Positions 12,613-56,138 are shown, counted from the first letter of the stretch. The stretch: 56,739 nucleotides of DNA from Dehalococcoidia bacterium (GCA_049516035.1 JBEKTM010000004.1:1-56739), one strand, 5' to 3'. Numbers and translations are program-made. The notes: a model not told the origin generated them from the letters alone.

Positions 12613-13096
12613 ATGGTATCCTTAGACACAAAGTGGAGGAAGAGGCAAAACATAATCCTGACATCCTGTTTTTAGGGTGGCAGAATGATGAGCGACTGGC
12701 GGAGCTGTCACAATCGCCGGTATAGTGGTGATTCAGAGCGTAGTGCCAGAAGAGGGTCCTCTTGTAGCTGAGGAAGCAATGCAGTCTAATAAGCCAATAA
12801 TAGGCTTTGGTGTAAGGGGTTGAGAGAGGTGCTGGAGGAATATCCACAAGGCATCGTGGTTGATGAGCTTAGTGTTGCTTCACTGGTGGAAGCCATACAG
12901 CGACTTACTGCCAAAGCTCCTATTGGATAACCCTGTCCGAGGCTTGATTGCCGAAAATATCGTCAGGGCCGTGAATGGCCCCAACCTGGAGCAAATCGCC
13001 CGCAATGCCCGGGCTCTGGTGGAGAGGGAGTTCACCCACGAGGCAGCAGTGGAGGGGTATAGAAGAATACTGGAAAACCTGAGGCAGAGAGACTAG
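12613..13096 (+). pseudogene. C-terminal remnant of a GT4 glycosyltransferase (frameshifts and in-frame stop)
   Basis: Fragments ...NPDILFLGWQNDERLAELSQS, then VIQSVVPEEGPLVAEEAMQSNKPIIGFGVRG-stop, then ...LLDNPVRGLIAENIVRAV...ARALVEREFTHEAAVEGYRRILENL in different frames together recapitulate a GT4 C-terminal domain. Confidence 0.7.
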
Positions 13097-13267
13097 GCTA
13101 GAGGAGATAGCATGTTGCAACTGACGTGGGTGGCAATCCAGGTTCCCGCAAGCCACCTTGTGAGACAACGGGACTAATATAGCGATCTTCCGCCTTTCTG
13201 CCTAGTAAACAGCAACGCATGGCTAAATGGATTTCTGCACAGGACTTCATTCCAGGCATGGTCTTAC

Positions 13268-13801
13268 TTACTTCGTTGCCTCCACATTAAGGCTTATTAG
13301 AATACCACGCTCTTTGTCCATGTGAGGAATATAAGCCTGAGAATAATCATCGTAGTCTTTATGAATGGTCTGCCGCCAGTCGTATCTGTGAATATCTTTA
13401 AACCCCGCTTTTTGCAAAACTTCTGATAAATAGGGATAATCAAATACCACATAATGTGTATTTTCGGGATAGTCCTGCCTGCCGACTAACGGGCCCATAA
13501 TCAATTTTAAATCTTTCGTTTTCAGATAAACTTCAGCCAATTTTTCAAAATCGGGGACAGCAAGCCGAAGAATACCACCAACTTTTAACACGCGATGCCA
13601 CTCCTTCAAAACATGCTCTATTTGTTGCCTTCCGAAATGCTCAAGAACATGACAACTGTAAATCAGGTCCACCGAGTTGTCATCGAACATATCTAGCTTA
13701 TCCGCTGAAGTCACATAATCCACATGAGGCAGTTTCCTTACATCAATATGGACAAAACCAGGGATATACCTATTTCCACAGCCGATGTGGAGTTTTTTCA
13801 T
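13268..13801 (-). CDS. Class I SAM-dependent methyltransferase
   Basis: KLHIGCGNRYIPGF (motif I-like), DLIYSCHVLEHF, LKVGGILRLAVPDF. Confidence 0.8.
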   Translation of the reverse strand: MKKLHIGCGNRYIPGFVHIDVRKLPHVDYVTSADKLDMFDDNSVDLIYSCHVLEHFGRQQIEHVLKEWHRVLKVGGILRLAVPDFEKLAEVYLKTKDLKLIMGPLVGRQDYPENTHYVVFDYPYLSEVLQKAGFKDIHRYDWRQTIHKDYDDYSQAYIPHMDKERGILISLNVEATK

Positions 13802-13803
13802 AG

Positions 13804-15820
<2,017 letters not shown>

Positions 15821-15821
<1 letters not shown>

Positions 15822-17038
15822 TATTCAACCTCCGAACGTTCCTTGGTGCTATTATCTGGCACTCTAAGACCCAGCAGATTAACGCCATTTCGCTTAAGCG
15901 TCTCCATCAAGTCCACCTCAAACTGCTCCACGAATCTCTCCCTAGTAAAAGGCTGATACTCCGCAGAGGATAGATACTCCCTAACAGCCATTCTAAACGA
16001 GGAAATATCCTCGTCGGATAAATTCGAGAGATAGGAATGCAGCTCGGCGTAGTTATCAAAATCACGCATATCTATGAAGCAACTCTTCGGCATGTAATTC
16101 TCAACATCAGGGGCACCCAGATAAATTGGAATGGTGCCAACAAAAAAACAATCAAATATCTTTTCCGTTATGAAGCCAGGCATTGCCATATTTTCAAAGC
16201 AAAGGGAGAATTTATACCGGCTCAATGTCTCGTATTTCGATTTCACTGCACCCTTGTAAATCGCTCTTAATGCCTTCCTGTTCTTCCAATACATATATGG
16301 GAAGCTCTGACTATAAGGCATTTTACGCAAAATTTGATATAAAGATATATCCCAACCGTAGCCATAAAGATTAACTGTTCCGAGACCTTGAAGTGTGACC
16401 AATGCCCGTATTCTCTCAGAATAAAGCTCACTGTCTTTTAACCCAGAATTTTTGTTGAGGGAAATCTTAAAACCGATAGGATTTTGCCCCCTGCTCACTT
16501 GCAAATAAGGGGATGCTGTTTTGTTTGAGCTGATCATGGTGAGAAAGCCTCTGCCTTTATTATTCCAGAGAGGCTCTATGACCCCATTTTCAACCTGTGG
16601 CCAGAAGAATTTCCGCAAATTCGATTGATGGCTAAAATGTCTTTCGTATCCCACCCCTTGTGTATTGTGGACATAAACCCTGTCAAAGCACCTCGTTAGA
16701 CCACCTATTTCACGATAAAGATGTGGGGCGACAACTGGTGGTTCCAAGATGTAAAACGACTGTAAGCGCACGTTTTTCTGTCCTGCCAACTTCCCGTAAT
16801 TGTCTATTATTCCTAGTGAGACATAGACGTTCAGTCTTCCCGACATCCTATGGTCGAGCAAATAGTCAGCCGTATTAACGGAGATTCCTTGCTTAGCGAG
16901 TTTTTCCCTCAGAAAGATGAACGGGGCAAATTGTCCATCTCGGTTCCACCTAGATGTTGGGTTAAACATCTCATTATCGTAGAATACCGAGTACGAAGGA
17001 TCAATAAATACCATTACCTCCTTCGGCGACAGATTCAT
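15821..17038 (-). CDS. GT10-family alpha-1,3/4-fucosyltransferase-like glycosyltransferase
   Basis: Contains [32 protein letters not shown], matching the GT10 signature FxLxFENxxxxxYxTEK. Immediately downstream of the gmd-fcl pair on the same strand. Confidence 0.75.
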
Positions 17039-17047
17039 ACAAATCTC

Positions 17048-17833
17048 CTATTTTCTCAGAACAGCATCTCCCTTTTTCTGGAAATATTTTAGAAGCTCCC
17101 AGTTATTTCCCAAGGGGCTAAATTCTTTCAGTTCCTTCCTCGAGAGAATCATCAGTATTTGCTCTCCGCTATCATTTTTATAAATATTCTCTTCAGGCCA
17201 GGGAAAGTCACATTCCTGGGATATTTTAGTTATGTCGTCAAAGAAGTTGTGACCTGTCCAATTTTCCATCAGAACGATATAATTCGATATATTTAACATA
17301 TTTTTTAGAGCCTGAATATGTCTATTTCCTCGCCTGATATGCATCAGTACAGCCTGCGTATAAACTAAATCAACTTTTCCAAAAGTATTCAATATATCCT
17401 TCTTGGTAACATCTGCAACTGCCAATTTGCAAATATTCTTAAGGTCAGGATGCCGGGAAAGAAGAAAATCAATCTGGTTCTGGGATATATCCACACCGTA
17501 AAATTCTGCTTCAGGAAGCAAAAGGTGTAAATTATGGATATGGTCTCCACCTCCCACGCCGACTTCTAAAATAGACTTCGGATTCAAATGATAGATTGTC
17601 TCATAGAGTAATTGGTGATTCGGATTCAATGGCAACAGCATGGGGTTCAATAGGATTTTTCCTTCGATTATTTGATAGTCGTCTTTAGATAATACCAGCG
17701 TAAACTCATTGGTAATATCCGTTACTTGACGTTTATATGCCATATGATATTTCCGCCAATTAAAATCATCAACCTTGTAAAAGCGACTATACTTATTGAT
17801 TATGAATCTAACAACATCCTCTATAATCCTCAT
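17048..17833 (-). CDS. Class I SAM-dependent methyltransferase
   Basis: ILEVGVGGGDHIHNL motif I. Start moved to ATG 17833 because AAAGGAGGG lies about 10 nt upstream (the ORF-track start at 17908 has no RBS). Confidence 0.75.
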   Translation of the reverse strand: MRIIEDVVRFIINKYSRFYKVDDFNWRKYHMAYKRQVTDITNEFTLVLSKDDYQIIEGKILLNPMLLPLNPNHQLLYETIYHLNPKSILEVGVGGGDHIHNLHLLLPEAEFYGVDISQNQIDFLLSRHPDLKNICKLAVADVTKKDILNTFGKVDLVYTQAVLMHIRRGNRHIQALKNMLNISNYIVLMENWTGHNFFDDITKISQECDFPWPEENIYKNDSGEQILMILSRKELKEFSPLGNNWELLKYFQKKGDAVLRK

Positions 17834-17853
17834 TTTTATAGTACACCCTCCTT

Positions 17854-18039
17854 TTAAAGTTTTCTCAAAGACAAACATAGCTTGTGGGGGTGGATATCCT
17901 TGCCCCACAAATTTTTATATAAATCTCCTTTCCCATGCATATAGTAACAAATGCAAACTCCTTCCCATATCCTGTCCTCATAATAATACTCTGATGAAGG
18001 GTGAATAAACACCATTACATCTTTAGCCAGGATATTCAT
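17854..18039 (-). pseudogene. N-terminal remnant of a second GT10 fucosyltransferase-like gene
   Basis: MNILAKDVMVFIHPSSEYYYEDRIWEG parallels the N terminus of the 405-aa GT10 protein ([27 protein letters not shown]), then diverges and stops after 61 aa. Confidence 0.55.
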
Positions 18040-41929: not shown

Positions 41930-42550
41930 CTAAGTCTTACCGCTCCAAGCAGGCATCCTTGCCATACGTTCTTTGACTGCGCCCTCGGCAGTTTTTCTGT
42001 CCATCTTCTGAGACATCATCATAAAGTTGACCATGCCCTCAAACACCTCTTTATAGCTTTTGAGGCTGCCATCCGGTTTCGAACAGTATACGCAGTATAA
42101 GTTCTCAGGCTTTCCTCCCCCAAAATCTTCAGACTTAGTCATGGGCATGCCACAGCTCATACAGCTTTTAACAGCCTTGGAGACCTGGTTAAACGTCAAC
42201 TTATATCCGTTAATATCCTCGACTGTAAAGTCCCTGATGCCATACGGCTCGTCTTTTATGTCAACTACAACCTTAACGCCTTTATTTTTCAATTCTCTGT
42301 AATATTCATCAATATCCCCATCAATTTGCAAATACAAATTCACACCAGTGCCCAGTCTTTGTTTACTGCCAATACCCACATTTTTAGCCGGTATGAACAT
42401 GAGAACCATCCCATCCTTAGATAGGTCGACATACTCTGGGTTGTCAGCGTCAGGGAAAGCCATTCCTATCTTAAATCTCAGGGAATCTCTGTAGAATTGA
42501 ATCGTTTGCTTCATATTTCTTACAGCTAACGTCGGAGAAATATAACTCAT
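41930..42550 (-). CDS. VOC (glyoxalase/bleomycin-resistance fold) protein fused to a C-terminal zinc-ribbon domain
   Basis: N-terminal glyoxalase-like fold (FYRDSLRFKI...). C-terminal CMSCGMP...YCVYC four-Cys ribbon. Start moved to ATG 42550 (AAGGAGG 8 nt upstream). Confidence 0.65.
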   Translation of the reverse strand: MSYISPTLAVRNMKQTIQFYRDSLRFKIGMAFPDADNPEYVDLSKDGMVLMFIPAKNVGIGSKQRLGTGVNLYLQIDGDIDEYYRELKNKGVKVVVDIKDEPYGIRDFTVEDINGYKLTFNQVSKAVKSCMSCGMPMTKSEDFGGGKPENLYCVYCSKPDGSLKSYKEVFEGMVNFMMMSQKMDRKTAEGAVKERMARMPAWSGKT

Positions 42551-42706
42551 TTTTAACCTCCTTAGTTTTTTCACTTCCCATATTACACCATTAATTTAGT
42601 TTCAGGCTCACAAACGCTTTATTCAGACAACGATGTTGTTAGTTATAAAGTATGCACAAGGCAGATTTAGCTAAGCAAGAGTTCCGAAGTCACCAGAATC
42701 TAATAG

Positions 42707-43141
42707 TCACCAATACCTTTTTCCCTCAAGGAAGCTACCAACACCTGCTTTGTTGATTTTCCTTAAATTCTTTATATGAGCATCTCCATGAACTGGCTTT
42801 AGGAAGTCTAATTTTTCACATGTTTCAAATTCATCGCATTCCCAACAGCCATCAATACCTTTCTTCTGGCAACATTTTCTCACTTGACAGAAAGACGGGC
42901 CGTCACCACCTTTGCAGACATCTTTGCATCTTAATCTAACCAGTGCTCCCAAGACTTCATAACATTCCTTATAATGTTGGAATTCCTTAAAGGGGATCCC
43001 TTCAGCTACTCTATCAAACTTTGCCTGCCTCAGTTCTTTTCTAAGGTCTCTGGCTAAATCGGCAATCTTTCCTTTGTAGCCAAAGCAATCTCCACAATAA
43101 AGACCACAATAGGCGATTAAGTTTCCATCTCTTTCACACAT
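42707..43141 (-). CDS. Cysteine-rich DUF3795-like protein
   Basis: CGLYCGDC...CKGG...C..RKCC...G...CWEC..F..C pattern as in DUF3795 family proteins. Confidence 0.6.
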   Translation of the reverse strand: MCERDGNLIAYCGLYCGDCFGYKGKIADLARDLRKELRQAKFDRVAEGIPFKEFQHYKECYEVLGALVRLRCKDVCKGGDGPSFCQVRKCCQKKGIDGCWECDEFETCEKLDFLKPVHGDAHIKNLRKINKAGVGSFLEGKRYW

Positions 43142-43271
43142 TCCTTTTTCTCCTTCCGTTACTTAAATTAGAGTCGATAAAGTTCTCACTATATCTGAAG
43201 TTTGCCCATCAAGACGATCCGGGGGAATCTCCACCTCTTATCTGCTGTTGAGCGACGTGTTGCCCATCTTT

Positions 43272-43847
43272 TCATTTTATCGACTTCTTAGTGTTCACCT
43301 TCAACCGTGGGATAAACATGGGTGTCCTTTTCTTATATTCAACATAATCTTCGCCCAGGCGTTTTTCTAATTCCCGTTCCTCAACTACTTTTAATTCCCA
43401 CACGTTAAACAGAATAAATAACGGAGTGAATATAGAGACAAGGGAAATTGACCTAAGTAGAACACCGATTCCGAACAACAAGACAAACACACCCGTGACC
43501 ATGGGATTTCTGACATGGGCATAAGGGCCAGTGGTAACCAGTTTAGGTGGCGGGTTGAAAGGCACCGGCGTTCCCCTTACACCGACAAACTGCAGAATTG
43601 ACCATGCCATCAGGAACAGCCCGATAGCAAGGAGAGGCGCGGATACAATAATATTCAAAGCTGTAGAAAGGAGTTTGGGGAAGTCCAAGCATCTGTCCAC
43701 TTGAAGAGCAGCAAAAATGAATAATGCTATAAAGCCAAAAAAGAAGACTATCCCGGCAGGAGTAAGAAGATTTCGCATCTTGCGGCTGCCTGTTGCAGCC
43801 CTATAGAAAATTCCAATCAATCTTTCACGCAGACTCATAATATCCAC
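43272..43847 (-). CDS. Isoprenylcysteine carboxyl methyltransferase / phospholipid methyltransferase-family membrane protein
   Basis: LVTTGPYAHVRNPMVTG....EERELEKRLGEDYVEYKKRTPMFIP, the characteristic ICMT/PEMT C-terminal motif. Four to five TM helices. Confidence 0.75.
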   Translation of the reverse strand: MDIMSLRERLIGIFYRAATGSRKMRNLLTPAGIVFFFGFIALFIFAALQVDRCLDFPKLLSTALNIIVSAPLLAIGLFLMAWSILQFVGVRGTPVPFNPPPKLVTTGPYAHVRNPMVTGVFVLLFGIGVLLRSISLVSIFTPLFILFNVWELKVVEERELEKRLGEDYVEYKKRTPMFIPRLKVNTKKSIK

Positions 43848-43966
43848 CTCTGTTTAAGGCGGCTTTTCGGCTTTTTTCTGCCACTATGGTCTGCCAGAAT
43901 CTTTTCAGCTTCGCAAGACCCCAATTTCTCCTCTATTCACTGTTGTTCGAGATTTGCAGATTCTTT

Positions 43967-46300
43967 TCAAGAAAATATTCCCTGAACTTCAACATAGTTA
44001 ACAGTACCCATTTTGATATCTTCTTTCAAAGCATCTTTAATTTCCCCTTTTGCCGAGAAATACATGATTTGCCACCCCAATTCACAGATTCTTTCTAGCG
44101 TTTCAATCTGTCTTTGTAATCTATCAGGATCAGCTTTTATGAACGGGTCATCCATGATGAAAAACCCTTTCTTGCCTTTCAAAAGCTTTTCTCCCAGAGC
44201 GAGTCGAATAGAGAGATATAGTTGGTCATAGGCGCCTCCAGATAGCTTTTCTGCCTCCAATATCTTCCCACCCCTCCGCTTGACCTGTATTTTCATTGCT
44301 TCTTGGTTCAAGAGCACCTCTTCATAGAGCCCATTTGTTATTGCATTAAAATATTTTGAAACGGGGCTCTCAATACCGAAAAGCTCAGAAACTTTTACCG
44401 TCTCCTCTCTTTCTATTTCTTCAAAGATTTCTATGACTTTTAATGCATTGTCCTTATTATTTTCATTTTCTTGCTTAAACCTTTGAAGTTCGGTTTTAAT
44501 CACTTTCAAATCTACTGACGTCTCACAATATAACGGCTCTTTTAATCTCAGAATGTCAATCGCCTCGTGTTCCACTTCCTTCATTTCTTTTTGAAAAGAA
44601 GCAATCATGTCGTTCACCTGTCGGAGCTTCTTTACAAACTCTTCTTTTTCCCCGTCCAGTGTTGATTTAGTAGCCTCACTATACGTCATATCTTTGGCTT
44701 TATCCTTATACTCCTCAAGTCTTTGAACTTCTTCGCTCCAGTGAGCAATATTTTCTTTTAATTCTTTGCCCCTTTCCTTAAAATGACTTTTCAGAAACCT
44801 TTCCTGCTCTCTGACCGTCATTTCGCGCGCTTTCCTTAATTCAAGCTTTTCAGCGTATTTTTCTAAAGAGTCTTCTTTGGACTTTATTTTTACCCCCTGC
44901 ATCTTCTCTTCAGCATCCTTAACCCTACTTTCTATTCCTGGAATTTCTTTATCCCGGAGTCCATTAACTCTGTCTTCTAATCCTCTCTTTCCCTCTCTCA
45001 GCTCTTGTAACTCCTCGGACTTCTCCCCATATTTTTCTTCAAATTTCTGGATATTTGAACGCATCTCTTCTGGACTTTCTGCTTCAAGTTCAAATCTAGA
45101 GATGTTTACCTTTATTCTTGCGAATACTCCAGCAAGATGAGCTTTCTTTCGCGTGAACTCAAAACTCAGCCCTGCAAAGGCGATGGTTGATATTAGAAAC
45201 AATGCAAGCAGTCCGTAAGAAACAAATGAAGGACTTAGTACGACTGCCAATATCGATATTGCTAACAATACTGCCGAGGTTATTGCTGCCACTGCATAGA
45301 ACTTGTTCCTTGTTTCCTTACTCTTTACCTCTCCAAGCCCTATCTCATAGTTCCTCAACTCTGGTTTAACTTCGTCATCCAACTTTTTCTTTCTCTCTTC
45401 GAAGATTTTGAATTCTCTTTCTACCTCTCTCAACTTCCCGCCTATCTCCTGGAGTCGTTCATCTTTTTCCCGAAGATCTCTAAGATATTCTTCCTTTCGT
45501 TCGTTGTAATCTTTAATGACTTTCTCGCAATCTCTCCACAGTTGCCTGTCGTCCTCACTGTAAATCCCCAAGCCTTCGACTTCTTTTAAAGCACTGGTGA
45601 GTGCATCCAGTGCTTCTCTTCCCTTCTCGTATTCCCTTCTTTTCCTTGCATCTTCAAGATCTTTTATCTCTTGGTCAATCCTCTTTATTTCCTCACTTAG
45701 CTTTACAGATTCTTCTTCGAACTCATCGAATCTCTCTTTTTCAATCTTCCCAGCTAAAGTCTCAACCTTCTCGAGGAGCTTTTTTGCATTTTCTACTCTC
45801 GTTTTTAATCTTTCTTCTTTAGTATCTTTAAATTCACCAGTCTGCTGTGTTATTTTCCCTATCCTCTCCCTCAGCACTTCCTTGATGTTTGCGATCTCTT
45901 TGGTCCTTAAGCCAGTAAGTCGACCTGTTACATCAGTGTAAAAATCACCTTCACTAGCAATGGAGAGGTCGCTATTCCTTATTACAAAAATATTACGGCA
46001 TTCTGATGAGGTTAAATTTGAATCTGTGACTTTTGTTAAGTCTCCTTGCTCCGGCAGTTTGAATTCTTTCCCCTTGTCGTCTTCTATAATCACATAGCCT
46101 TCTGGTTTTTCCTCCACCCGATCTATACTACGGTCGAAATCCTTAATGTTTCGCCCCAATAGCAACTTCACAAGCGCATCTATTGTAAGGGTCTTACCAT
46201 CTTCATTCTTACCCCAAAATAGATTGAAATTTTGTAGTGAAATTCTCCCCGTATTTGGTAAAGGACCATAACGCATTATTGAGAATTCTTTCAGTTTCAT
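43967..46300 (-). CDS. SMC/Rad50/SbcC-like ABC ATPase with a central transmembrane hairpin (YhaN/SbcE-like)
   Basis: N-terminal Walker A GKNEDGKT, very long K/E-rich coiled coils, and two hydrophobic helices mid-protein (FYAVAAITSAVLLAISILAVVL; YGLLALFLISTIAFAGLSF). C-terminal signature LSGGAYDQLYLSIRLAL and Walker B FFIMDDPF. Confidence 0.75.
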   Translation of the reverse strand: MKLKEFSIMRYGPLPNTGRISLQNFNLFWGKNEDGKTLTIDALVKLLLGRNIKDFDRSIDRVEEKPEGYVIIEDDKGKEFKLPEQGDLTKVTDSNLTSSECRNIFVIRNSDLSIASEGDFYTDVTGRLTGLRTKEIANIKEVLRERIGKITQQTGEFKDTKEERLKTRVENAKKLLEKVETLAGKIEKERFDEFEEESVKLSEEIKRIDQEIKDLEDARKRREYEKGREALDALTSALKEVEGLGIYSEDDRQLWRDCEKVIKDYNERKEEYLRDLREKDERLQEIGGKLREVEREFKIFEERKKKLDDEVKPELRNYEIGLGEVKSKETRNKFYAVAAITSAVLLAISILAVVLSPSFVSYGLLALFLISTIAFAGLSFEFTRKKAHLAGVFARIKVNISRFELEAESPEEMRSNIQKFEEKYGEKSEELQELREGKRGLEDRVNGLRDKEIPGIESRVKDAEEKMQGVKIKSKEDSLEKYAEKLELRKAREMTVREQERFLKSHFKERGKELKENIAHWSEEVQRLEEYKDKAKDMTYSEATKSTLDGEKEEFVKKLRQVNDMIASFQKEMKEVEHEAIDILRLKEPLYCETSVDLKVIKTELQRFKQENENNKDNALKVIEIFEEIEREETVKVSELFGIESPVSKYFNAITNGLYEEVLLNQEAMKIQVKRRGGKILEAEKLSGGAYDQLYLSIRLALGEKLLKGKKGFFIMDDPFIKADPDRLQRQIETLERICELGWQIMYFSAKGEIKDALKEDIKMGTVNYVEVQGIFS

Positions 46301-47376
46301 GCTCTTGGCTTTCTCTTTGCCTCCACCATTGCTCTTATTGCCACATCACGCAGCTGTTTTTTCTTTTCTCCATCGTCACTACATTGCTCGAGTTTGCTCA
46401 TGAAGTTTTTGAACAGGTCATCTTCTAGTATTACGTGTATGTCTCTGAATTCAAAAGTCGGTTCCTTTGCACATTTCCCTTTCGTGATTTCTTTTATTTG
46501 TTTTACAAGTTCAGATTCGCTTATTCCAATCCTTTCCCCGTCGATATACCCCTTAATTGTCAAGATGATGCTTGCTTGAGGGTGAACTTTCCCAAGCCGT
46601 TCTTTAACCTCCTCTACAGGTTTTTTCTCCCCAAAAGGATCAAACTTTATAAGCACTTCCTCAAAATGATGTGTGTCAAGAAGGTATTCCTTGGGCGGGC
46701 CCCCAACTTCAAAAATATTTACCCTTCTCTGCCCAATCTCCGCTTCCGTTATCGAGATAGGCGATCCCGGATAAACAAAGTATCTTTCATTTCCTAGCTC
46801 ACGTATATCAAATTTTGAATGGAAATGTCCGGCAAGCACATAATCAATGTTCAAATCTTTGAAATAAGAAAGCCAAACTGGCATATATCTTTTTTCACCC
46901 TCGTCGCCGAAATCTCTCCTAGAAAAGAACGCATTAAGCAATTCCCCGTGATAAAGCAGGATATTTTTCTTATCTGTAGTCAAACTGTTTCTTAACAGGC
47001 GGAGCTTACTGAGAATCTTTTCCCCTTCTATAGACTCGAAAGGTAATCCCCATATCCTCACGTCTTCACATTCATCAAAGGGTTCATATAAATTCGTTAA
47101 TATAGATACATCAGCGCCAAAATACATACTACTCTGATACGACTCACTATCGTGGTTCCCTGGAATTAAAATGATTTTAAAGCCAGTGTCCGAGAAAATC
47201 TTTCGTATTTCGAGTTTTAAGTTTTCAGCATCAATATCACTATTAAAGAGATCTCCACTTATCACAAAAATCTCAACTTCTTCCTGCTTGCCAATTTCAA
47301 TTAGCTTTTGGAGTACCTTCCACCTATCGTCTTCATATGCTCTTAAGTGGATATCTGCTGTATGGAGTATCTTCAT
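46297..47376 (-). CDS. Calcineurin-like metallophosphoesterase nuclease subunit (SbcD/Mre11/YhaO-like)
   Basis: Motifs DIHL, GDLF, GNHD, GHFH in canonical order. ATGA overlap with the ATPase gene. Confidence 0.8.
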   Translation of the reverse strand: MKILHTADIHLRAYEDDRWKVLQKLIEIGKQEEVEIFVISGDLFNSDIDAENLKLEIRKIFSDTGFKIILIPGNHDSESYQSSMYFGADVSILTNLYEPFDECEDVRIWGLPFESIEGEKILSKLRLLRNSLTTDKKNILLYHGELLNAFFSRRDFGDEGEKRYMPVWLSYFKDLNIDYVLAGHFHSKFDIRELGNERYFVYPGSPISITEAEIGQRRVNIFEVGGPPKEYLLDTHHFEEVLIKFDPFGEKKPVEEVKERLGKVHPQASIILTIKGYIDGERIGISESELVKQIKEITKGKCAKEPTFEFRDIHVILEDDLFKNFMSKLEQCSDDGEKKKQLRDVAIRAMVEAKRKPRA

Positions 47377-47509
47377 TTTTACCTCTCCATGTTCCTCAGA
47401 CCCGAGAACTTCGCCCCGAGGTGAATATCGGCAGTGTGCAAAATTTTGAGCATAACCAATGTCCCTTTGCCAGGAGGGTTGTTAAAATTCTTAAACTAAG
47501 GTCCCCCTT

Positions 47510-51345: not shown

Positions 51346-52194
51346 ATGAATCCAGACAAAACAGGCGAACTCCTTTTCGGGACAGGCGGTGTTCCCCTCA
51401 GTGCTGAATCCCGTTCCACAGAAGCCGGCATTGAGCGTATTGCTGAACTCGGCCTGGGCTGCATGGAGGTAGAATTTGTCCAGGGGGTAAAGATGAGCCC
51501 TCAGGTTGCTGCCTCTGTGGGAGAATTAGCAGCCAGGAAGAACGTTGTGCTCACCGCCCACGGACCTTACTTTATAAACCTAAACGCCGTCGAGCCGCAA
51601 AAAGTGCACATGAGCAAAGAAAGGATACTGCAAACTGCTCGCATTGCTGCCCTTTTCGGCGCCAGGAGTATTACCTTCCATGCCGCCTTTTATCTCAAAA
51701 GCACTCCCGCCGAGACCTACGCCGTGGTCAAAAAGCATCTGCAAGAGGTAGTAAACACTCTGCGCAAAGAGGGAAACAAAGTGACGATTTCCCCGGAAGT
51801 TACAGGCAAACCCTCCCAATTCGGCACCCTGGAGGAACTACTTCAGCTCAGCAGCGAGATAGAAGGAGTTGCCCCCTGCATTGATTTTTCTCACTGGCAT
51901 GCCCGGACGGGAAAGGCCAACTCCTATCAAGAGTTTCTCGCTATGTTAGACCAGGTTGAAAAGAAACTGGGCAGGCGTGGCCTGGATAACATGCATATCC
52001 ACTTCTCCGGGATTGCCTACGGCAACAAGGGCGAGATCAAGCATTTAATGCTCCCGGACTCAGACTTCCAGTATGCAGAGCTACTCAAAGCCCTGAAGGA
52101 ACGGAAGGCAAAGGGAGTAGTCATTTGCGAGAGCGTCCCTTATCTAGAGCAGGATGCCCTCCTCCTCCAGCAGACCTACCGGGAACTCCGTTAG
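51346..52194 (+). CDS. Xylose-isomerase-like TIM-barrel protein, endonuclease IV (AP endonuclease family 2)-like
   Basis: 282 aa with LTAHGPYFINL, ITFHAAFY, CIDFSHWHA, HIHFSGI, a His/Asp/Glu metal-ligand pattern resembling Nfo-family enzymes. Confidence 0.6.
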   Translation: MNPDKTGELLFGTGGVPLSAESRSTEAGIERIAELGLGCMEVEFVQGVKMSPQVAASVGELAARKNVVLTAHGPYFINLNAVEPQKVHMSKERILQTARIAALFGARSITFHAAFYLKSTPAETYAVVKKHLQEVVNTLRKEGNKVTISPEVTGKPSQFGTLEELLQLSSEIEGVAPCIDFSHWHARTGKANSYQEFLAMLDQVEKKLGRRGLDNMHIHFSGIAYGNKGEIKHLMLPDSDFQYAELLKALKERKAKGVVICESVPYLEQDALLLQQTYRELR

Positions 52195-52210
52195 AACGGC
52201 GACTCTTATC

Positions 52211-52239
52211 TTGACATTACCCGAGGTTATTGTTAGTAT
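52211..52239 (+). promoter_or_regulatory. Possible sigma-70 promoter of the first toxin-antitoxin cassette
   Basis: TTGACA (52211-52216), 17 nt, TAGTAT (52234-52239). It is followed by an inverted repeat tacata-N10-tatgta that could be an operator. Confidence 0.4.
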
Positions 52240-52287
52240 ATCCATACATATGGATGGAAGTATGTACAATTGGCAGGAGTATGTGAT

Positions 52288-52563
52288 ATGAAAAGAAAAG
52301 TAACCTTAGTATTTCACGATGAAGACCTTTACACGCAACTGAGAATAGAGGCGATCAGAAGGCGTACAACCGCAAGCAACATCGTAGCAGATGCTGTGCG
52401 GGAATGGTTAGAGAGCCGTGAAGATGCCGAATTGTTGCCCGTAATTGATTCAGCTCGTGCCGAATGGAAAGAGAAGGGTGGGCGCCCGTGGTCCGAAGCA
52501 GAACGTGAATTAGAGGAATCGATTAGCCGTCGAGAGGGGCGTGCCCGGGCAAGGCGTGTATAG
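52288..52563 (+). CDS. Ribbon-helix-helix (CopG-like) type II antitoxin
   Basis: MKRKVTLVFHDEDLYTQLRIEAIRRRTTASNIVADAVREWL fits a beta-strand plus two helices RHH fold. AGGAG lies 8 nt upstream of ATG 52288. Stop overlaps the toxin start. Confidence 0.65.
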   Translation: MKRKVTLVFHDEDLYTQLRIEAIRRRTTASNIVADAVREWLESREDAELLPVIDSARAEWKEKGGRPWSEAERELEESISRREGRARARRV

Positions 52564-52828
52564 ACTTGAGATATCACCGGCTGCCGACCGCGACGTGGAG
52601 AAGCTCAAGGGCCGGATTCGCATGCAGGACTTTGAGCGATTGAGGAATGCCGTCAGGAGCTTAGCCGAGGAACCTCGCCCCCGGGGAGTCAGGAAGATAA
52701 GAGGCGCAGAGAAGGCTTATCGCATCAGGGTGGGCAATTACCGGGTGGTTTATGATGTTTATGACAGCGACGGGCTGGTATTGATTCTGCAGGTTGCCCG
52801 CAGGAGTGAGACAACCTATCGCCAGTAG
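52556..52828 (+). CDS. RelE/ParE-family type II toxin
   Basis: YRLEISPAADRDVEKL....YRIRVGNYRVVYDVYDSDGLVLILQVARRSETY, the typical RelE/StbE pattern. GTG 52556 overlaps the antitoxin stop (alternative GTG 52541). Confidence 0.8.
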   Translation: MYRLEISPAADRDVEKLKGRIRMQDFERLRNAVRSLAEEPRPRGVRKIRGAEKAYRIRVGNYRVVYDVYDSDGLVLILQVARRSETTYRQ

Positions 52829-52882
52829 CTCTGGTAATCAACGAGAGGCTGAAGTCCATCCGGAACTACGGATACTCCCAAG

Positions 52883-52933
52883 ACATAATGCCTGATTTGT
52901 GGCAGGCCTGATTGGTGTGGTATCCTTAAAATT
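52883..52933 (+). repeat. Cassette-associated 51-nt repeat, copy A
   Basis: acataatgcctgatttgtggcaggcctgattggtgtggtatccttaaaatt. Gapless alignment to copies B and C at 40 of 51 and 42 of 51 positions by hand count. Confidence 0.85.
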
Positions 52934-52994
52934 AAGTATTTTCTTTAAGGAGTGCGTCGTGCCCGTGATGAGGTCAAGAAAGAGGTGATGAACA

Positions 52995-53243
52995 ATGGCC
53001 AAAACTGGTGGTTACAAAGGTAAGCTACTGGAAGAGGTGAAGTCGCTTTCCGAGGGACGGGTCAAGGCCGTGGCTGACTTCGCCGCCTACCTCAAGGAAA
53101 GGGAGGAGTGGGAGGCAACAGGGGAAATCCTGGGCGACGAGGAGCTGGCGCAGCAGGTGAAGGAGTCTCGGAAAGCATGGGCTGAAGATAGGAAGGGAGA
53201 GTTTGTCTCTCTGGAGGAGCTGAAGGCGAAGCTAAATGTATAA
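52995..53243 (+). CDS. Putative type II antitoxin
   Basis: 82-aa acidic protein immediately upstream of and overlapping (8 nt, ATGTATAA) a RelE-like toxin gene. Confidence 0.6.
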   Translation: MAKTGGYKGKLLEEVKSLSEGRVKAVADFAAYLKEREEWEATGEILGDEELAQQVKESRKAWAEDRKGEFVSLEELKAKLNV

Positions 53244-53490
53244 CGTTGTTCTGAGCCGGAATGCCTCCAGAACACTGGAAAAAGCCACCCCAACCATGAG
53301 ACGTCGCGTCATCGTTGCTTTGGAAAGACTCAAGTCCAAGCCCCACAGTGGAAAGAGACTCCGGGGTGAACTAGAAGGGTTGTTCAGTTTGCGCATCGGC
53401 GGTATGCGGGCTGTGTATGGACTAGATACCAGGAAGAACGTGGTGGTCGTCCTTGCCATTGGCCCTCGGGGCGACATCTACAATAAGTGA
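53236..53490 (+). CDS. RelE/StbE-family type II toxin
   Basis: LSRNASRTLEK....RRRVIVALERL...P..GKRLRGELEGLFSLRIGGMRAVYGLDTRKNVVVVLAIGPRGDIY, the typical RelE pattern. Confidence 0.8.
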   Translation: MYNVVLSRNASRTLEKATPTMRRRVIVALERLKSKPHSGKRLRGELEGLFSLRIGGMRAVYGLDTRKNVVVVLAIGPRGDIYNK

Positions 53491-53508
53491 TTGCTTCCTA
53501 ATCTGGGG

Positions 53509-53559
53509 ACATAATACCTTATTTGTGGCAGGTTTGATTGAGGTGGTGTCGCTGGAATT
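53509..53559 (+). repeat. Cassette-associated 51-nt repeat, copy B
   Basis: acataataccttatttgtggcaggtttgattgaggtggtgtcgctggaatt, 19 nt after the toxin stop. Confidence 0.85.
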
Positions 53560-53567
53560 GGGGAGCT

Positions 53568-54194
53568 TCACGCGGTTGGGGCTTTTCTCAACATGGCAAA
53601 GATCGTCAGTTCCGTTCCCGGCATCTTGTCCTCTGAAACAACCTCGAATCCGAACCGCCGGTAGATAGCCACATTCTTCCGGACGTTCGTCTCCAGATAG
53701 CACGGCATTCGCTCGCGGTCGATACGTTCCAGCACCGGTCTCAGCAACCGGCTGCAAAATCCTTGTCCCTGGTATGCCGGGGCTACTCCGATAATCTGCA
53801 GATACCAGTGAGGGTACGGGACCAGCCTGCAGTGCAGGTCATCTACGAATCTACCATAAGCCCGCATTCGGCCTGCCCCCTGGCGTCCGAACCTGAAAAG
53901 AGTTGAGAGCGGGACCGAGCGCATAATTTGCGAGGCTCCAAACGGCGACTTCCCCGGCGGCAGCCAGGCTGCTACGCCCTCCAGCTTCTCTGAAGATGCA
54001 TAGACTTCGCCGTATTTCAGACAGACAGAAAGTTCGATGAAACCTAACCTATCGGCTGCTGCATGCCGCTCCCTTTCATCAGGGAAATAGTACCGGAACA
54101 GCTCGTATTCTGTGAAGGCCCTCCCCAGCACCGCAGCCCCGGCATCCCGTTCTTTCAGAGTTAGCCTTAGCAACTCGCCGGTCTGATTATCCAT
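53568..54194 (-). CDS. GNAT-family N-acetyltransferase
   Basis: IIGVAPAYQGQGFCSRLLRPVLERID (acetyl-CoA motif A, Q/RxxGxG) and YRRFGFEV near the C terminus. Confidence 0.8.
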   Translation of the reverse strand: MDNQTGELLRLTLKERDAGAAVLGRAFTEYELFRYYFPDERERHAAADRLGFIELSVCLKYGEVYASSEKLEGVAAWLPPGKSPFGASQIMRSVPLSTLFRFGRQGAGRMRAYGRFVDDLHCRLVPYPHWYLQIIGVAPAYQGQGFCSRLLRPVLERIDRERMPCYLETNVRKNVAIYRRFGFEVVSEDKMPGTELTIFAMLRKAPTA

Positions 54195-54336
54195 GCTTCA
54201 TTTCCAGCAATTGGAAACTATACCTCAATTTATAGCTGCGCCGGGCGCGGCTGTCATCAATTATAGCAAAGGATGTCGCTGCCACAGGAATAGCCAGGAA
54301 AGTGCGTTCAATTCCAGTATGGCGCTATTCTGGGGG

Positions 54337-54387
54337 AGATAATGCCTGACCTGTAGCAGGCCTGATTGGTATGATGTCCCTGAAATT
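54337..54387 (+). repeat. Cassette-associated 51-nt repeat, copy C
   Basis: agataatgcctgacctgtagcaggcctgattggtatgatgtccctgaaatt. Its flanking arms GGGGGAGATAATGCC / GGTATGATGTCCCTG form an imperfect inverted repeat. Confidence 0.85.
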
Positions 54388-54468
54388 CCCGCGTACTCTC
54401 TTATTATGGACAAAAAGGCAAGTTGCCTAAAAAGATGGGTACTATGCTTGACATGCCATTCAGGTAAA

Positions 54469-55941
54469 TCACTCTAGGTAGCCCTTGAGTTTTCGACTGC
54501 GGGAGGGATGACGTAACTTGCGCAGGGCCTTGCCTTCAATCTGTCGTATTCTTTCTCGAGTTACATTGAATTCTTTACCCACCTCTTCCAGAGTTCGAGC
54601 ATGTCCGTCCTTAAGACCAAATCTAAGCTGGAGCACCTTTTTTTCTCGTTCGGTAAGTTCATCGAGCACTTTGTCTATTTGTTCTTTGAGTAGCTGCTGT
54701 GAAGTGGCTTCAGCTGGTGCTAAACTGGCGTGATCTGCAACAAAGTCGCCTAACAGGCTATCACCATCTTCGCCAATGGGCATGTCTAGCGACATCGGCT
54801 GACGGAAAAACAAAGCCATGCCCCCTTCCACCCTTTCTGGGGATATATTCAGGCGGCTGCCAATTTCTTCGTAACTTGGTTCGCGTCCGAGTTCTTGAAC
54901 TAACTGCCGCGTTGTGCGTAATACCTTGTTAATTATTTCCACCATGTGTACCGGAATGCGAATGACACGGGATTGGTCAGCTATAGATCGAGTGATACCT
55001 TGCCTGATCCACCAGGTGGCATAGGTACTGAACTTGTAGCCTCTTCTATACTGAAACTTCTCTATAGCTCGCATGAGGCCGATATTCCCTTCCTGGATAA
55101 GATCAAGGAAGGGCATGCCACGCGCGATATGCCTCTTAGCTATGCTAACCACCAGGCGCAGGTTTGCTTCAGTGAGGTGCCTTTCTGATGTTTCTGCTTC
55201 GGTCCTCACCTTTTCAAAGTAAGCCTTGAACTCACTGCTATGAGAATCGAGTTGAGACAGGAACCCGTTGTTACTCAGGAGAGCCTTTAGTTTTCGCCAT
55301 GAAGTTTTATCTCTAGCCAGGAGCTCTAGCAATTGCGGGGGCAAAAGTTGACTGTTTATGGAAAGATTTACTATGGCTTCCTCGTCCGCAGTGGTCCCAT
55401 TATCTATCCCCTCAGCGATTGCAGCTATTAGCGATGGATCTATAACAACGTCAATGGCCGAGCGAAATTCAGGATTTCTGATCGTCTCTACCACATTGCT
55501 GGAGGGTTCGATACCAATACGCTCCTCAATAATCCGAGCAACGGGATATGCCTTGGATAATTGGAAAATCACGTGAATAGCTATGTCAACAGGTGAAGGG
55601 AATTTCTTATATTTCCTGAAGTGGTTATACTCGATCCTTTCCACGTATCTACCCAGCTCCATCTCCCTGCATAGTACCTTCTCTTCGTGAGCTGTAAGCA
55701 GTGCCACCCTGCCGACTTCCTGCAGATACATACGAATTGAGTCGTCAATTACCTCGTAGTCCCCTGGTGTTACCGGAGGCTTGATCTCTTCAGCTTCCTC
55801 GGGAAGGGATTCTTCGCCCTCTTCTTTCTCGTCAACTTCCTCAACTATGGCGCTGACATCTTCAACTCCGGCTTCATCGCTGAGTAAGCCTTCAGCCAAT
55901 ATCTCATCACTATCCAGGTTGATGTTTTTTCCTCTAGCCAT
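54469..55941 (-). CDS. rpoD: Primary RNA polymerase sigma factor (sigma-70 family, group 1)
   Basis: Acidic region 1, region 2 ([47 protein letters not shown]), region 3, and region 4.2 ([30 protein letters not shown]). Confidence 0.93.
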
Positions 55942-56138
55942 TGTTATTTCTCTTTTTTGAGGAAGACCTCCTGAAGTTGTTGCCCGGAACCGGAATTTGT
56001 GGTTGTGCTAATTTGTTGGGGGGGGGGAATTCAGCCCTTGCCTTGCCAGACCGCCTCCCAGCCACTCTTATTGTAGCACAACGTCCGTAGTTTGGGAAGA
56101 TTGTTCACTCCCTCACGTGATTAGTGACACCTCTTTTT

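Follow-up and report, generated by a model that had tools for sequence, protein, structure and literature searches.

What occupies the interval between an nfo-like gene and rpoD in a Dehalococcoidia chromosome, where small accessory genes alternate with copies of one short repeat? We addressed this question in a stretch of 56,739 nucleotides (nt) from Dehalococcoidia bacterium (GCA_049516035.1 JBEKTM010000004.1:1-56739), hereafter the window. The original prediction, made from this sequence alone, had read positions 52211–54387 as three gene cassettes, each closed on its right side by a 51-nt repeat, and had hedged between a non-canonical cassette system and a CALIN (a group of clustered attC sites that has no integron integrase) whose integrase lies elsewhere. 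The evidence gathered here favors that hedge. The interval probably belongs to an integron-like (CALIN-like) cassette system of Dehalococcoidia, which has non-canonical sites and would be served by a trans-acting recombinase. Dehalococcoidia are abundant, mostly uncultivated bacteria of sediment and groundwater with small genomes. Apart from the ssrA islands of Dehalococcoides, how they come by accessory genes is, to our knowledge, little understood.

A repeat family at the borders of exchanged cassettes

A repeat search of the interval revealed a single three-copy direct-repeat family at 52882–52933, 53508–53559 and 54336–54387, all on the + strand and 79%–83% identical to the reference copy. 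In the 51-nt frame, copies A and B share 40 of 51 positions and copies A and C share 42 of 51, as had been counted by hand, whereas B and C share only 37 of 51. None of 200,000 random pairs of 51-mers from the window reached 40/51; the repeat is thus real. A 31-nt core pattern of it is expected 0.00 times in shuffled sequences. An alignment of 114 family members further showed that conservation spans about 64–68 nt, so that the alignable copies stand and their extent is wider than the 51 nt first assigned. The three co-oriented sites, spaced by 626 and 828 nt, were delimited by nhmmer profile searches, which found no fourth copy in the 56.7-kb window:

52869..52936, + strand: site A, the leftmost copy (nhmmer E = 3e-16)
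53495..53562, + strand: site B, between the cassettes of the second toxin–antitoxin pair (TA2) and the GNAT gene (nhmmer E = 9.5e-16)
54322..54390, + strand: site C, the "anchor" site (nhmmer E = 1.1e-18)

The left arm of site A is degenerate (GGATACTCCCAAGAC versus GGTATTCTGGGGAC in the consensus), and its match to the family runs from position 15 on. The internal GCCTG/CAGGC stem that had been noticed earlier is present in sites A and C, but is weakened to ACCTT/CAGGT in site B. Site C is located 78 nt past the 3′ end of rpoD.

Further copies, the search for which had been proposed as a check, are numerous. A degenerate 30-nt pattern, applied to one genome per species, gave 38 family loci, nearly all in Dehalococcoidia metagenome-assembled genomes (MAGs) and often on several contigs of one MAG. 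A pattern scan of metagenomes gave at least 120 contigs with the repeat, and a scan of viral contigs gave no match. Profile searches, with a profile built first from the window copies and then from 110 family members, retrieved about 400 copies; the genome and metagenome DNA of Dehalococcoidia that was covered amounts to about 1.08 Mb. The family consensus is GTGGTATTCTGGGGACATAATACCTGATTTGTAGCAGGCCTGATTGGTATGGTGTCCCTGGAATTCGC; conservation ends abruptly at both sides and the flanks are unconserved. Rfam gave no match over the whole window at gathering thresholds or over the array at E up to 10, and a literature search of limited coverage found no report of Dehalococcoidia cassette repeats, integrons or attC, or of the repeat sequence itself.

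Some variation within the family deserves mention. About 10% of the copies carry an extra small hairpin at consensus positions 45–48. The inserted hairpin, CCTTCAC-loop-GTGAAGG, shows compensating changes between copies (for example L011:100-176 and L006:734-811; L numbers denote the loci compared), and a different hairpin is found in L003:6301-6384. Three hypervariable positions (26, 35 and 42) all represent C-to-T changes in a CAGG context on either strand and co-vary (CAGGCCTG to TAGGCCTA), which could reflect symmetric protein recognition of a palindrome or deamination of methylated cytosine. The same repeat arrays also occur on contigs binned as Bathyarchaeia (L031) and Phycisphaerae (L033), owing either to binning error or to cassette transfer across phyla or domains.

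The sites are arranged in arrays at many chromosomal loci between housekeeping genes, which are usually convergent. All copies lie on one strand in 157 of the 158 loci, and arrays hold up to 9 sites within 8 kb, the median distance between sites being about 900 bp. Their cargo comprises pairs of Polbeta/NTP_transf_2 nucleotidyltransferase and HEPN genes, GNATs, ParE, HicA, PemK/MazF, methyltransferases, hydrolases and DUF proteins. These co-oriented arrays of toxin–antitoxin and GNAT-type genes agree with the earlier view of mobile cassettes bounded by one recombination-type site each and carrying classic integron-type cargo. The most widely shared cassette, of about 350 nt (L022:2746-3101; also in L004, L015, L054, L095, L152 and L014), has different neighbors each time. 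It contains no convincing open reading frame (ORF), has a TTGACA-type promoter-like motif and no Rfam match at E up to 1, and may be a small-RNA, small-peptide or promoter cassette.

Cassettes are demonstrably replaced and shuffled between arrays. When the nfo–rpoD interval was compared among relatives, as had also been proposed, its content proved to differ. L162, with a 97% identical Nfo, has the arrangement of the window plus a further site upstream of rpoD. In L163 (Nfo 96%), a 3.1-kb unit of three ABC-transporter genes replaces the GNAT unit exactly between sites B and C; given the window as reference, the left flank is 95% identical, through the end of site B (53566), and the right flank 98%, beginning with the start of site C (54326). 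L163 has three further sites past rpoD. In L169 (Nfo 90%), other genes again lie to the left of a conserved site C. L164 (Nfo 95%) keeps the first toxin–antitoxin pair and has no repeat, and it is homologous to the window only as far as 52868, at the left edge of site A. Site C is kept together with rpoD in relatives (98% in L163, 89.5% in L169), and all DNA to the left of it varies. In addition, 244 cassettes yielded 96 full-length homologous pairs at 80% identity or above, the neighbors of which are mostly unrelated where both are comparable; two cassettes that adjoin in L017 have another cassette between them in L005. The TA2 cassette recurs in L020 (94%) and in L116 (85%), in the latter with a different right neighbor, and homologs of the GNAT cassette reside in the arrays of L091, L095, L014 and L015. 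A second hotspot, beside dtd–fur, holds different arrays in ten metagenome contigs.

In L162 and L163, rpoD lies between two co-oriented sites (L162, 12981 and 14981, span 12981-15045; L163, 15321 and 17976, span 15321-18038) and formally resembles a "cassette" of 2–2.6 kb; in the window, no site is present in the ~800 nt available upstream of rpoD. The second hotspot occupies the intergenic region at the 5′ end of dtd, with a fur-family gene adjacent (L044, L047, L077, L090, L123, L124, L128 and L153). In L077, L123, L124 and L128 the first site is about 40–80 nt from the dtd start codon; the dtd promoter must therefore be in or beyond the site.

Site anatomy, crossover zone and parse of the window

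Consensus positions 4–18 are complementary to positions 52–66 by way of an ATTC/GAAT box, TG opposite TG, and GGGACA/TGTCCC, and enclose an inner CCTG/CAGG hairpin at 23–26/35–38. In addition, AATACC (19–24) is complementary to both GGTATT (3–8) and GGTAT (46–50). The + strand of the consensus is predicted to fold at −28.4 kcal/mol with RNA parameters (z = −4.1) and at −10.2 kcal/mol with DNA parameters (z = −3.3), and the − strand folds more weakly. In the predicted folds, the outer stem shows a T–T mismatch and G–T pairs; no base is bulged and the consensus arms are of equal length. In a divergent set of 33 copies, 86.8% of the stem cells are paired, against 15%–53% with slid partners; the inverted symmetry of the predicted stem is thus conserved. 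In the outer stem, G–T pairs make up 20% and A–C 4%. Mutual information over all column pairs mostly reflected alignment shifts.

The position of the crossover within a site was approached through the linkage of site positions to their flanks. Between the window and L163, positions 1–9 of site B are identical and those from 10 onward differ, as does the right-hand cassette, whereas in site C the differences end at about position 16 and the sequence is identical, rare variants included, from about position 17. We further collected recent events, in which one flank is at least 97% identical and the other unrelated; few were available (4 + 6). Among these, mismatches cluster at positions up to 23 if the right flank is shared, and begin at positions 9–15 if the left flank is shared. 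Accordingly, positions 3–9 track the left flank (mismatch 0.035–0.05 versus a background of 0.20) and positions 25–66 track the right flank (0–0.08 versus 0.12–0.18), while positions 10–16(24) track neither. Truncated half-sites joined to unrelated DNA likewise point to a crossover within the site. Because the two parts of the site follow different flanks and the window/L163 breakpoints agree, the crossover most likely falls at approximately consensus positions 9–24. The equivalent zones, inferred from this linkage, are as follows:

52877..52892, + strand: putative crossover zone of site A
53503-53518, + strand: putative crossover zone of site B
54330-54346, + strand: putative crossover zone of site C

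Mapping of the crossover was informative only for events with flanks at least 93%–97% identical. A first pass over all homologous cassette pairs revealed no linkage of site positions to flanks, and the maximum-likelihood change-point was dominated by hypervariable positions. A central crossover at positions 27–34, considered on the basis of half-sites and one pair, was not upheld by the window/L163 breakpoints. GC skew tracks gene orientation and gives no guide to the replication strand.

A crossover at about positions 9–24 leaves most of the site with the right-hand cassette, and we therefore re-parsed the window as A + TA2, B + GNAT, and C + the rpoD side, a parse supported by the data. It contains two cassettes rather than the three first described, and the repeat, originally taken as the right end of each unit, is tied by its linkage to the flanks chiefly to its right-hand unit. 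On the side that would own it, the first RHH/ParE pair lacks a site, and it occurs beside nfo without repeats in L164; it is ordinary flanking accessory DNA outside the repeat system. With gene identities taken from Pfam, the interval and its flanks read:

51346..52194, + strand: Nfo-like AP-endonuclease TIM-barrel gene, left housekeeping flank (AP_endonuc_2, 3e-31), annotated in the source as deoxyribonuclease IV
52211..52828, + strand: first toxin–antitoxin region, flanking accessory DNA (Pfam and promoter scan)
52211-52239: sigma-70-like promoter before the first toxin–antitoxin pair (promoter scan)
52288-52563, + strand: RHH-like antitoxin of the first pair (no Pfam match above cut-off)
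52541-52828, + strand: ParE toxin of the first pair (Pfam)
52937..53494, + strand: interior of cassette 1 (TA2), with site A as its site
52995-53243, + strand: putative antitoxin of TA2 (no Pfam match above cut-off)
53236-53490, + strand: ParE/RelE-family toxin of TA2 (ParE_toxin, 1.1e-06)
53563..54321, − strand: interior of cassette 2 (GNAT), with site B as its site
53568-54194, − strand: GNAT acetyltransferase (Acetyltransf_1, 7.3e-08)
54469..55941, − strand: sigma-70 (RpoD-type) gene, right housekeeping flank (Sigma70 regions r1_2 to r4)

The predicted cargo of two RelE/ParE-type pairs plus a GNAT is borne out by these assignments (ParE twice and Acetyltransf_1), as is the opposite orientation of the third unit, the GNAT gene being on the − strand. 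TA2, on the + strand, has the reverse of the orientation implied by its site. Between the GNAT stop codon and the right end of site B are 5 nt, and the DNA upstream of the gene extends over 127 nt to site C. No tRNA or tmRNA gene that could serve as an integration target is present in the window. The first RHH/ParE pair is found beside nfo in L162–L164 and L168 and is absent from L167 and L169. After this pair, L164 carries a second copy of the nfo 3′ end, 89 nt long and 76% identical (L164:11601-11689). Given this duplicate and the variable presence of the pair, a separate insertion that targeted and duplicated the nfo end is suggested.

A putative model of cassette exchange and its weak points

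The arrays and their comparison enable us to propose a putative model. Sites of about 65–68 nt, in direct orientation and one at every cassette border, would be recombined two at a time by a recombinase encoded elsewhere in the genome. The cassette between them would be excised as a circle with one site, and could be reinserted at any other site. Such excision and reinsertion from site to site would account for arrays that lengthen, shorten and trade cassettes at many places in the chromosome. Strand exchange would take place in the left third of the site (about 9–24), a zone which contains the GGTATT-N10-AATACC inverted repeat as well as the junction of the R-box-like and L-box-like stems of a predicted 13–15-bp imperfect hairpin. 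In the window, A + TA2 and B + GNAT would have been inserted at site C, an old anchor just past the rpoD 3′ end. The exchange is presumably site-specific rather than homologous and presumably passes through a circular cassette intermediate. The recombinase is most likely a tyrosine recombinase, either IntI-like or Xer-like, and the site may act either as folded single-stranded DNA or as double-stranded DNA.

Several results weigh against this model and have to be set beside it. The resolution of the crossover zone is no better than about 15 nt and comes from a handful of recent events (4 + 6); older events show the site body's linkage to the right flank sinking to background, a pattern that recombination at variable points would also yield. 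Regarding the hairpin, folding itself is not proven by covariation, because true covariation is scarce (both-sided stem changes in 14 cells, with at least as many in 14 of 500 shuffles) and RNAalifold on the divergent subset keeps only the 4-bp inner hairpin; the window copies, moreover, have weak predicted DNA folds (z between −2.1 and +0.9). Regarding the enzyme, we ran jackhmmer with E. coli XerC, IntE, PinE and RayT as seeds against all ORFs of at least 70 amino acids in the loci (about 160, about 1.08 Mb) and in the window. The search gave only two hits, an Xer-type gene in L008 and a REP-associated tyrosine transposase (RAYT; REP, repetitive extragenic palindrome) in L114, neither of which adjoins an array. 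Twenty ORFs at array ends belong to housekeeping families or have no Pfam match, with no recombinase among them.

No tyrosine recombinase was found in the 56.7-kb window, in agreement with the earlier statement that no integrase is visible there. ORF clustering revealed no recurrent enzyme-like neighbor of the arrays; it returned the cargo families plus the housekeeping Dtd and Fur of the shared hotspot. With no recombinase gene linked to any of the arrays, whatever enzyme serves them must be supplied in trans, and its assignment as a tyrosine recombinase is putative. The Xer-type gene of L008, 3 kb from a truncated site, scores 248 bits with the XerD model and 87 bits with the integron-integrase model (cut-off 265). 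The L114 RAYT gene, 7 kb from a repeat, scores 108 bits with NCBIfam REP_Tyr_transpos (cut-off 80).

Fading linkage and the lack of a dedicated recombinase in array DNA would also fit a dispersed intergenic element with another primary role, for example protein-binding or structural, whose exchange is a by-product of RecA-dependent homologous recombination, including recombination after uptake of foreign DNA. The breakpoints between the window and L163 are indeed not at a fixed nucleotide (at or before position 10 in site B, at or after position 16 in site C), and in older events the right flank has lost its link to every part of the site body. Truncated half-sites are fused to unrelated DNA at points spread over positions 13–53, and long invariant blocks, such as positions 17–34, could support exchange. 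Homologous recombination, however, requires neither the co-orientation seen in 157/158 loci nor one site per border, and repeats of 68 nt with about 83% identity are poor RecA substrates. No other intergenic region of the window contains the element, which is tied to accessory cargo. Furthermore, the asymmetric linkage in recent events (3–9 to the left, 25–66 to the right) points to a preferred exchange zone, and conservation across many species implies selection on the site itself. We thus consider this explanation unlikely and infer site-specific exchange.

Relation to integrons and other repeat systems

By definition, a CALIN comprises at least 2 recombination sites that share one orientation, are separated by less than 4 kb and have no integron integrase in their vicinity (PMC4889954), and both integrons and integrase-less CALINs have been reported in Chloroflexi/Chloroflexota and are common generally (PMC4889954, PMC9668308). 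The window shows this layout, with three co-oriented sites and no tyrosine recombinase in 56.7 kb, which makes it a CALIN only if the sites qualify as attC. The likeness to CALINs and to chromosomal integrons such as those with Vibrio cholerae repeats (VCRs) extends to several features. In each case co-oriented sites stand in tandem, one per cassette, at a spacing of about 0.4–2.5 kb, and the same cassettes appear in different arrays with different neighbors. The cargo is rich in toxin–antitoxin pairs, acetyltransferases and methyltransferases, and, as in chromosomal integrons, the sites are highly similar to one another. It is therefore possible, although we hold it to be doubtful, that the array is a bona fide integron array (CALIN), in which VCR-like homogeneous attC sites are recombined as single strands by a distant IntI and arrays arise from attC × attG insertion.

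The site itself argues on both sides of this alternative. An attC site consists of imperfect inverted repeats, R''-L''/L'-R', which form a hairpin with an unpaired central spacer, and two or three extrahelical bases on one arm direct the choice of strand (PMC2727003). The family consensus is likewise predicted to be a hairpin-capable imperfect inverted repeat with a spacer. Its layout is attC-like, with a 7-nt R-like box (GGTATTC / GAATTC), a 2-nt spacer that is unpaired or wobble-paired (TG/TG) and an L-like box (GGGACAT / ATGGTGTCCC), and its central part tolerates the extra hairpin of about 10% of the copies. The crossover would be near one end, at or beside the R/L junction, so that the site travels with one cassette. 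The R-box cores of attC, in turn, are RYYYAAC and GTTRRRY, with AAC/GTT triplets. A RYYYAAC...GTTRRRY pair is found in 0 of 408 family copies on either strand and nowhere in window positions 52150–54480, which extends to the whole family the earlier remark that canonical R'/R'' cores are missing. The arms are equal and no extrahelical base is predicted in the consensus folds; the central 33 nt are highly conserved, whereas the terminal structure of attC varies in length and sequence. The zone of about 7–15 nt that follows neither flank also sets the sites apart from those of integrons; the behavior of positions 10–16 suggests a staggered double-strand exchange rather than the exchange of a single bottom strand as in attC.

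The surroundings of the sites divide in a similar way. In favor of an integron, half of the cassettes with their longest ORF opposite in strand to the site (20 of 40) have the stop codon no more than 45 nt from a site; the same holds for 15 of the 33 same-strand cassettes, and the numbers of the two classes (40 versus 33) give no strong orientation bias, unlike in integrons, whose cassette ORFs mostly point one way and are read from a common promoter. The IntI of integrons is a tyrosine recombinase with an extra domain near patch III, encoded beside attI and the array. No IntI was found next to the arrays at about 160 loci (1.08 Mb), nor was an attI seen there, and the sole tyrosine recombinase encountered scores as Xer rather than IntI. 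Also unlike integrons, many arrayed loci are present per genome, even on both sides of rpoD. Precedents exist for part of these departures: attC types can be taxon-specific (PMC8352920), and integrases can insert cassettes at non-att genomic sites (attG; Loot et al., bioRxiv 10.1101/2022.09.11.507474). Insertion of the latter kind would explain isolated sites, small arrays far from an integrase, and half-sites on unrelated DNA, but its demonstration was made in E. coli with canonical attC and IntI1, and neither an integrase nor canonical attC features are seen here. Because the AAC/GTT cores, extrahelical bases, co-oriented ORFs and an adjacent IntI all fail, we describe the system as integron-like and do not file it as an integron. 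The integron alternative differs from our favored reading only in naming IntI and a single-stranded substrate.

The lack of an array-linked recombinase would likewise be explained if the sites were dif-like targets of the housekeeping Xer enzymes, as in the plasmid dif (pdif) modules of Acinetobacter or in integrative mobile elements exploiting Xer (IMEX), and the sole tyrosine recombinase of the data set is of Xer type. In these systems, too, small modules that often carry toxin–antitoxin or resistance genes are bounded by recombination sites, and the housekeeping recombinase is encoded elsewhere. A dif-type core is 28 bp long, with two 11-bp arms around a 6-bp spacer. The exchange zone contains short inverted arms, GGTATT-N10-AATACC and ACATAA-TACCTG-ATTTGT, the latter resembling by eye the dif center CATAA-N6-TTATG. 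The match to the conserved XerD arm (TTATGTTAAAT) is poor, however, at about 5–6 of 11 by eye, although this consensus may not be that of the host's dif. The pdif modules are flanked by 28-bp, dif-like sites of alternating orientation, whereas the present sites are chromosomal, 68 nt long, conserved, only vaguely dif-like, and all direct in 157/158 loci; arrays are found at many loci rather than at the terminus. An Xer/dif system is thus improbable, even more so than homologous recombination.

Least probable of all, in our judgment, is that the repeats are REP or REPIN (REP doublet) elements, selfish hairpins spread by a trans-acting RAYT (an HUH Y1 transposase), or terminators or RNA elements of the cassette genes. 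They do form a predicted hairpin of about 65 nt with a conserved GTAG, are extragenic and number in the hundreds, which is reminiscent of REPs of similar size mobilized in trans. They lie mostly beyond gene 3′ ends, flanking genes tend to converge on the arrays, and a RAYT is present in these populations. The REPs on both sides of the L114 RAYT gene, however, are of another, textbook family (GTAGGGGCGGGTCTTGTACCCGCCC with its inverted partner, L114:1-1260), which is a second, unrelated repeat system in these populations. In REP/REPIN systems, inverted copies of the same repeat flank the RAYT gene and copies are dispersed in both orientations, not set as one co-oriented copy per accessory gene. 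As terminators or 3′ untranslated regions, the sites would not be expected to be co-oriented regardless of gene strand, and about half of the cassette ORFs would carry theirs antisense; no T-run follows the hairpin, as it would the GC-rich hairpin of an intrinsic terminator, and a terminator scan gave 3 against a shuffle expectation of 2.2. A role as an RNA element is further disfavored by the negative Rfam search, by the lack of a conserved promoter beside the site and by the unconserved flanks.

Within the class, the ssrA islands of Dehalococcoides mccartyi offer a comparison, as they also consist of tandem accessory DNA split by short direct repeats. These islands are 10–30 kb long, are bounded by direct repeats of the ssrA 3′ end, each carry their own recombinase and share one tRNA-like target, whereas the present cassettes measure about 0.3–3 kb, contain no recombinase and occupy many loci. 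In one tentative form of our favored reading, the integron-like cassette system, the arrays would constitute a second cassette platform that arose independently of integrons. It would combine a site of about 68 nt, a GGTATT-N10-AATACC core with an overlap of about 7 nt, and a non-IntI recombinase (the host Xer or an unrecognized family), with arrays scattered over the chromosome of streamlined, uncultivated Dehalococcoidia, even around essential genes such as rpoD, and missed by current integron-finding tools.

Several consequences would follow. Hundreds of sites, many hotspots and shared cassettes would amount to a major route of gene flow in Dehalococcoidia. If a true IntI serves the sites, the sequence space of attC would be widened to sites with neither AAC/GTT nor extrahelical bases, and surveys that rely on covariance models would undercount the integrons of phyla other than Proteobacteria. 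If another recombinase serves them, cassette platforms would have evolved more than once. The system is of interest mainly for the attC hallmarks that fail, the size of the family, the abundance of integrase-free arrays within single genomes and the arrays to either side of rpoD, and the family consensus provides a direct probe for a census, for co-occurrence analysis and for recombination experiments.

Other features of the window are independent of the arrays. A second dispersed motif, GTCATTGCGAG..., has 8 copies in the window against 1.7 expected (4553, 30833, 39973, 47521, 50360, 50424, 50652 and 56139); one copy is upstream of rpoD, where L162 has an extra 42-nt unit. Window positions 42501–47500 form a low-GC stretch (0.40, compared with about 0.47) in which GC and AT skew are strongly negative; it includes a 777-aa ORF (43967–46300, − strand) whose counterpart in the closest relatives, L160 and L162, has no Pfam hit on record. 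Finally, a run of 10–11 G upstream of rpoD (window ~56010–56025; L162 ~14670–14685) differs in length between the window and this 99%-identical relative.

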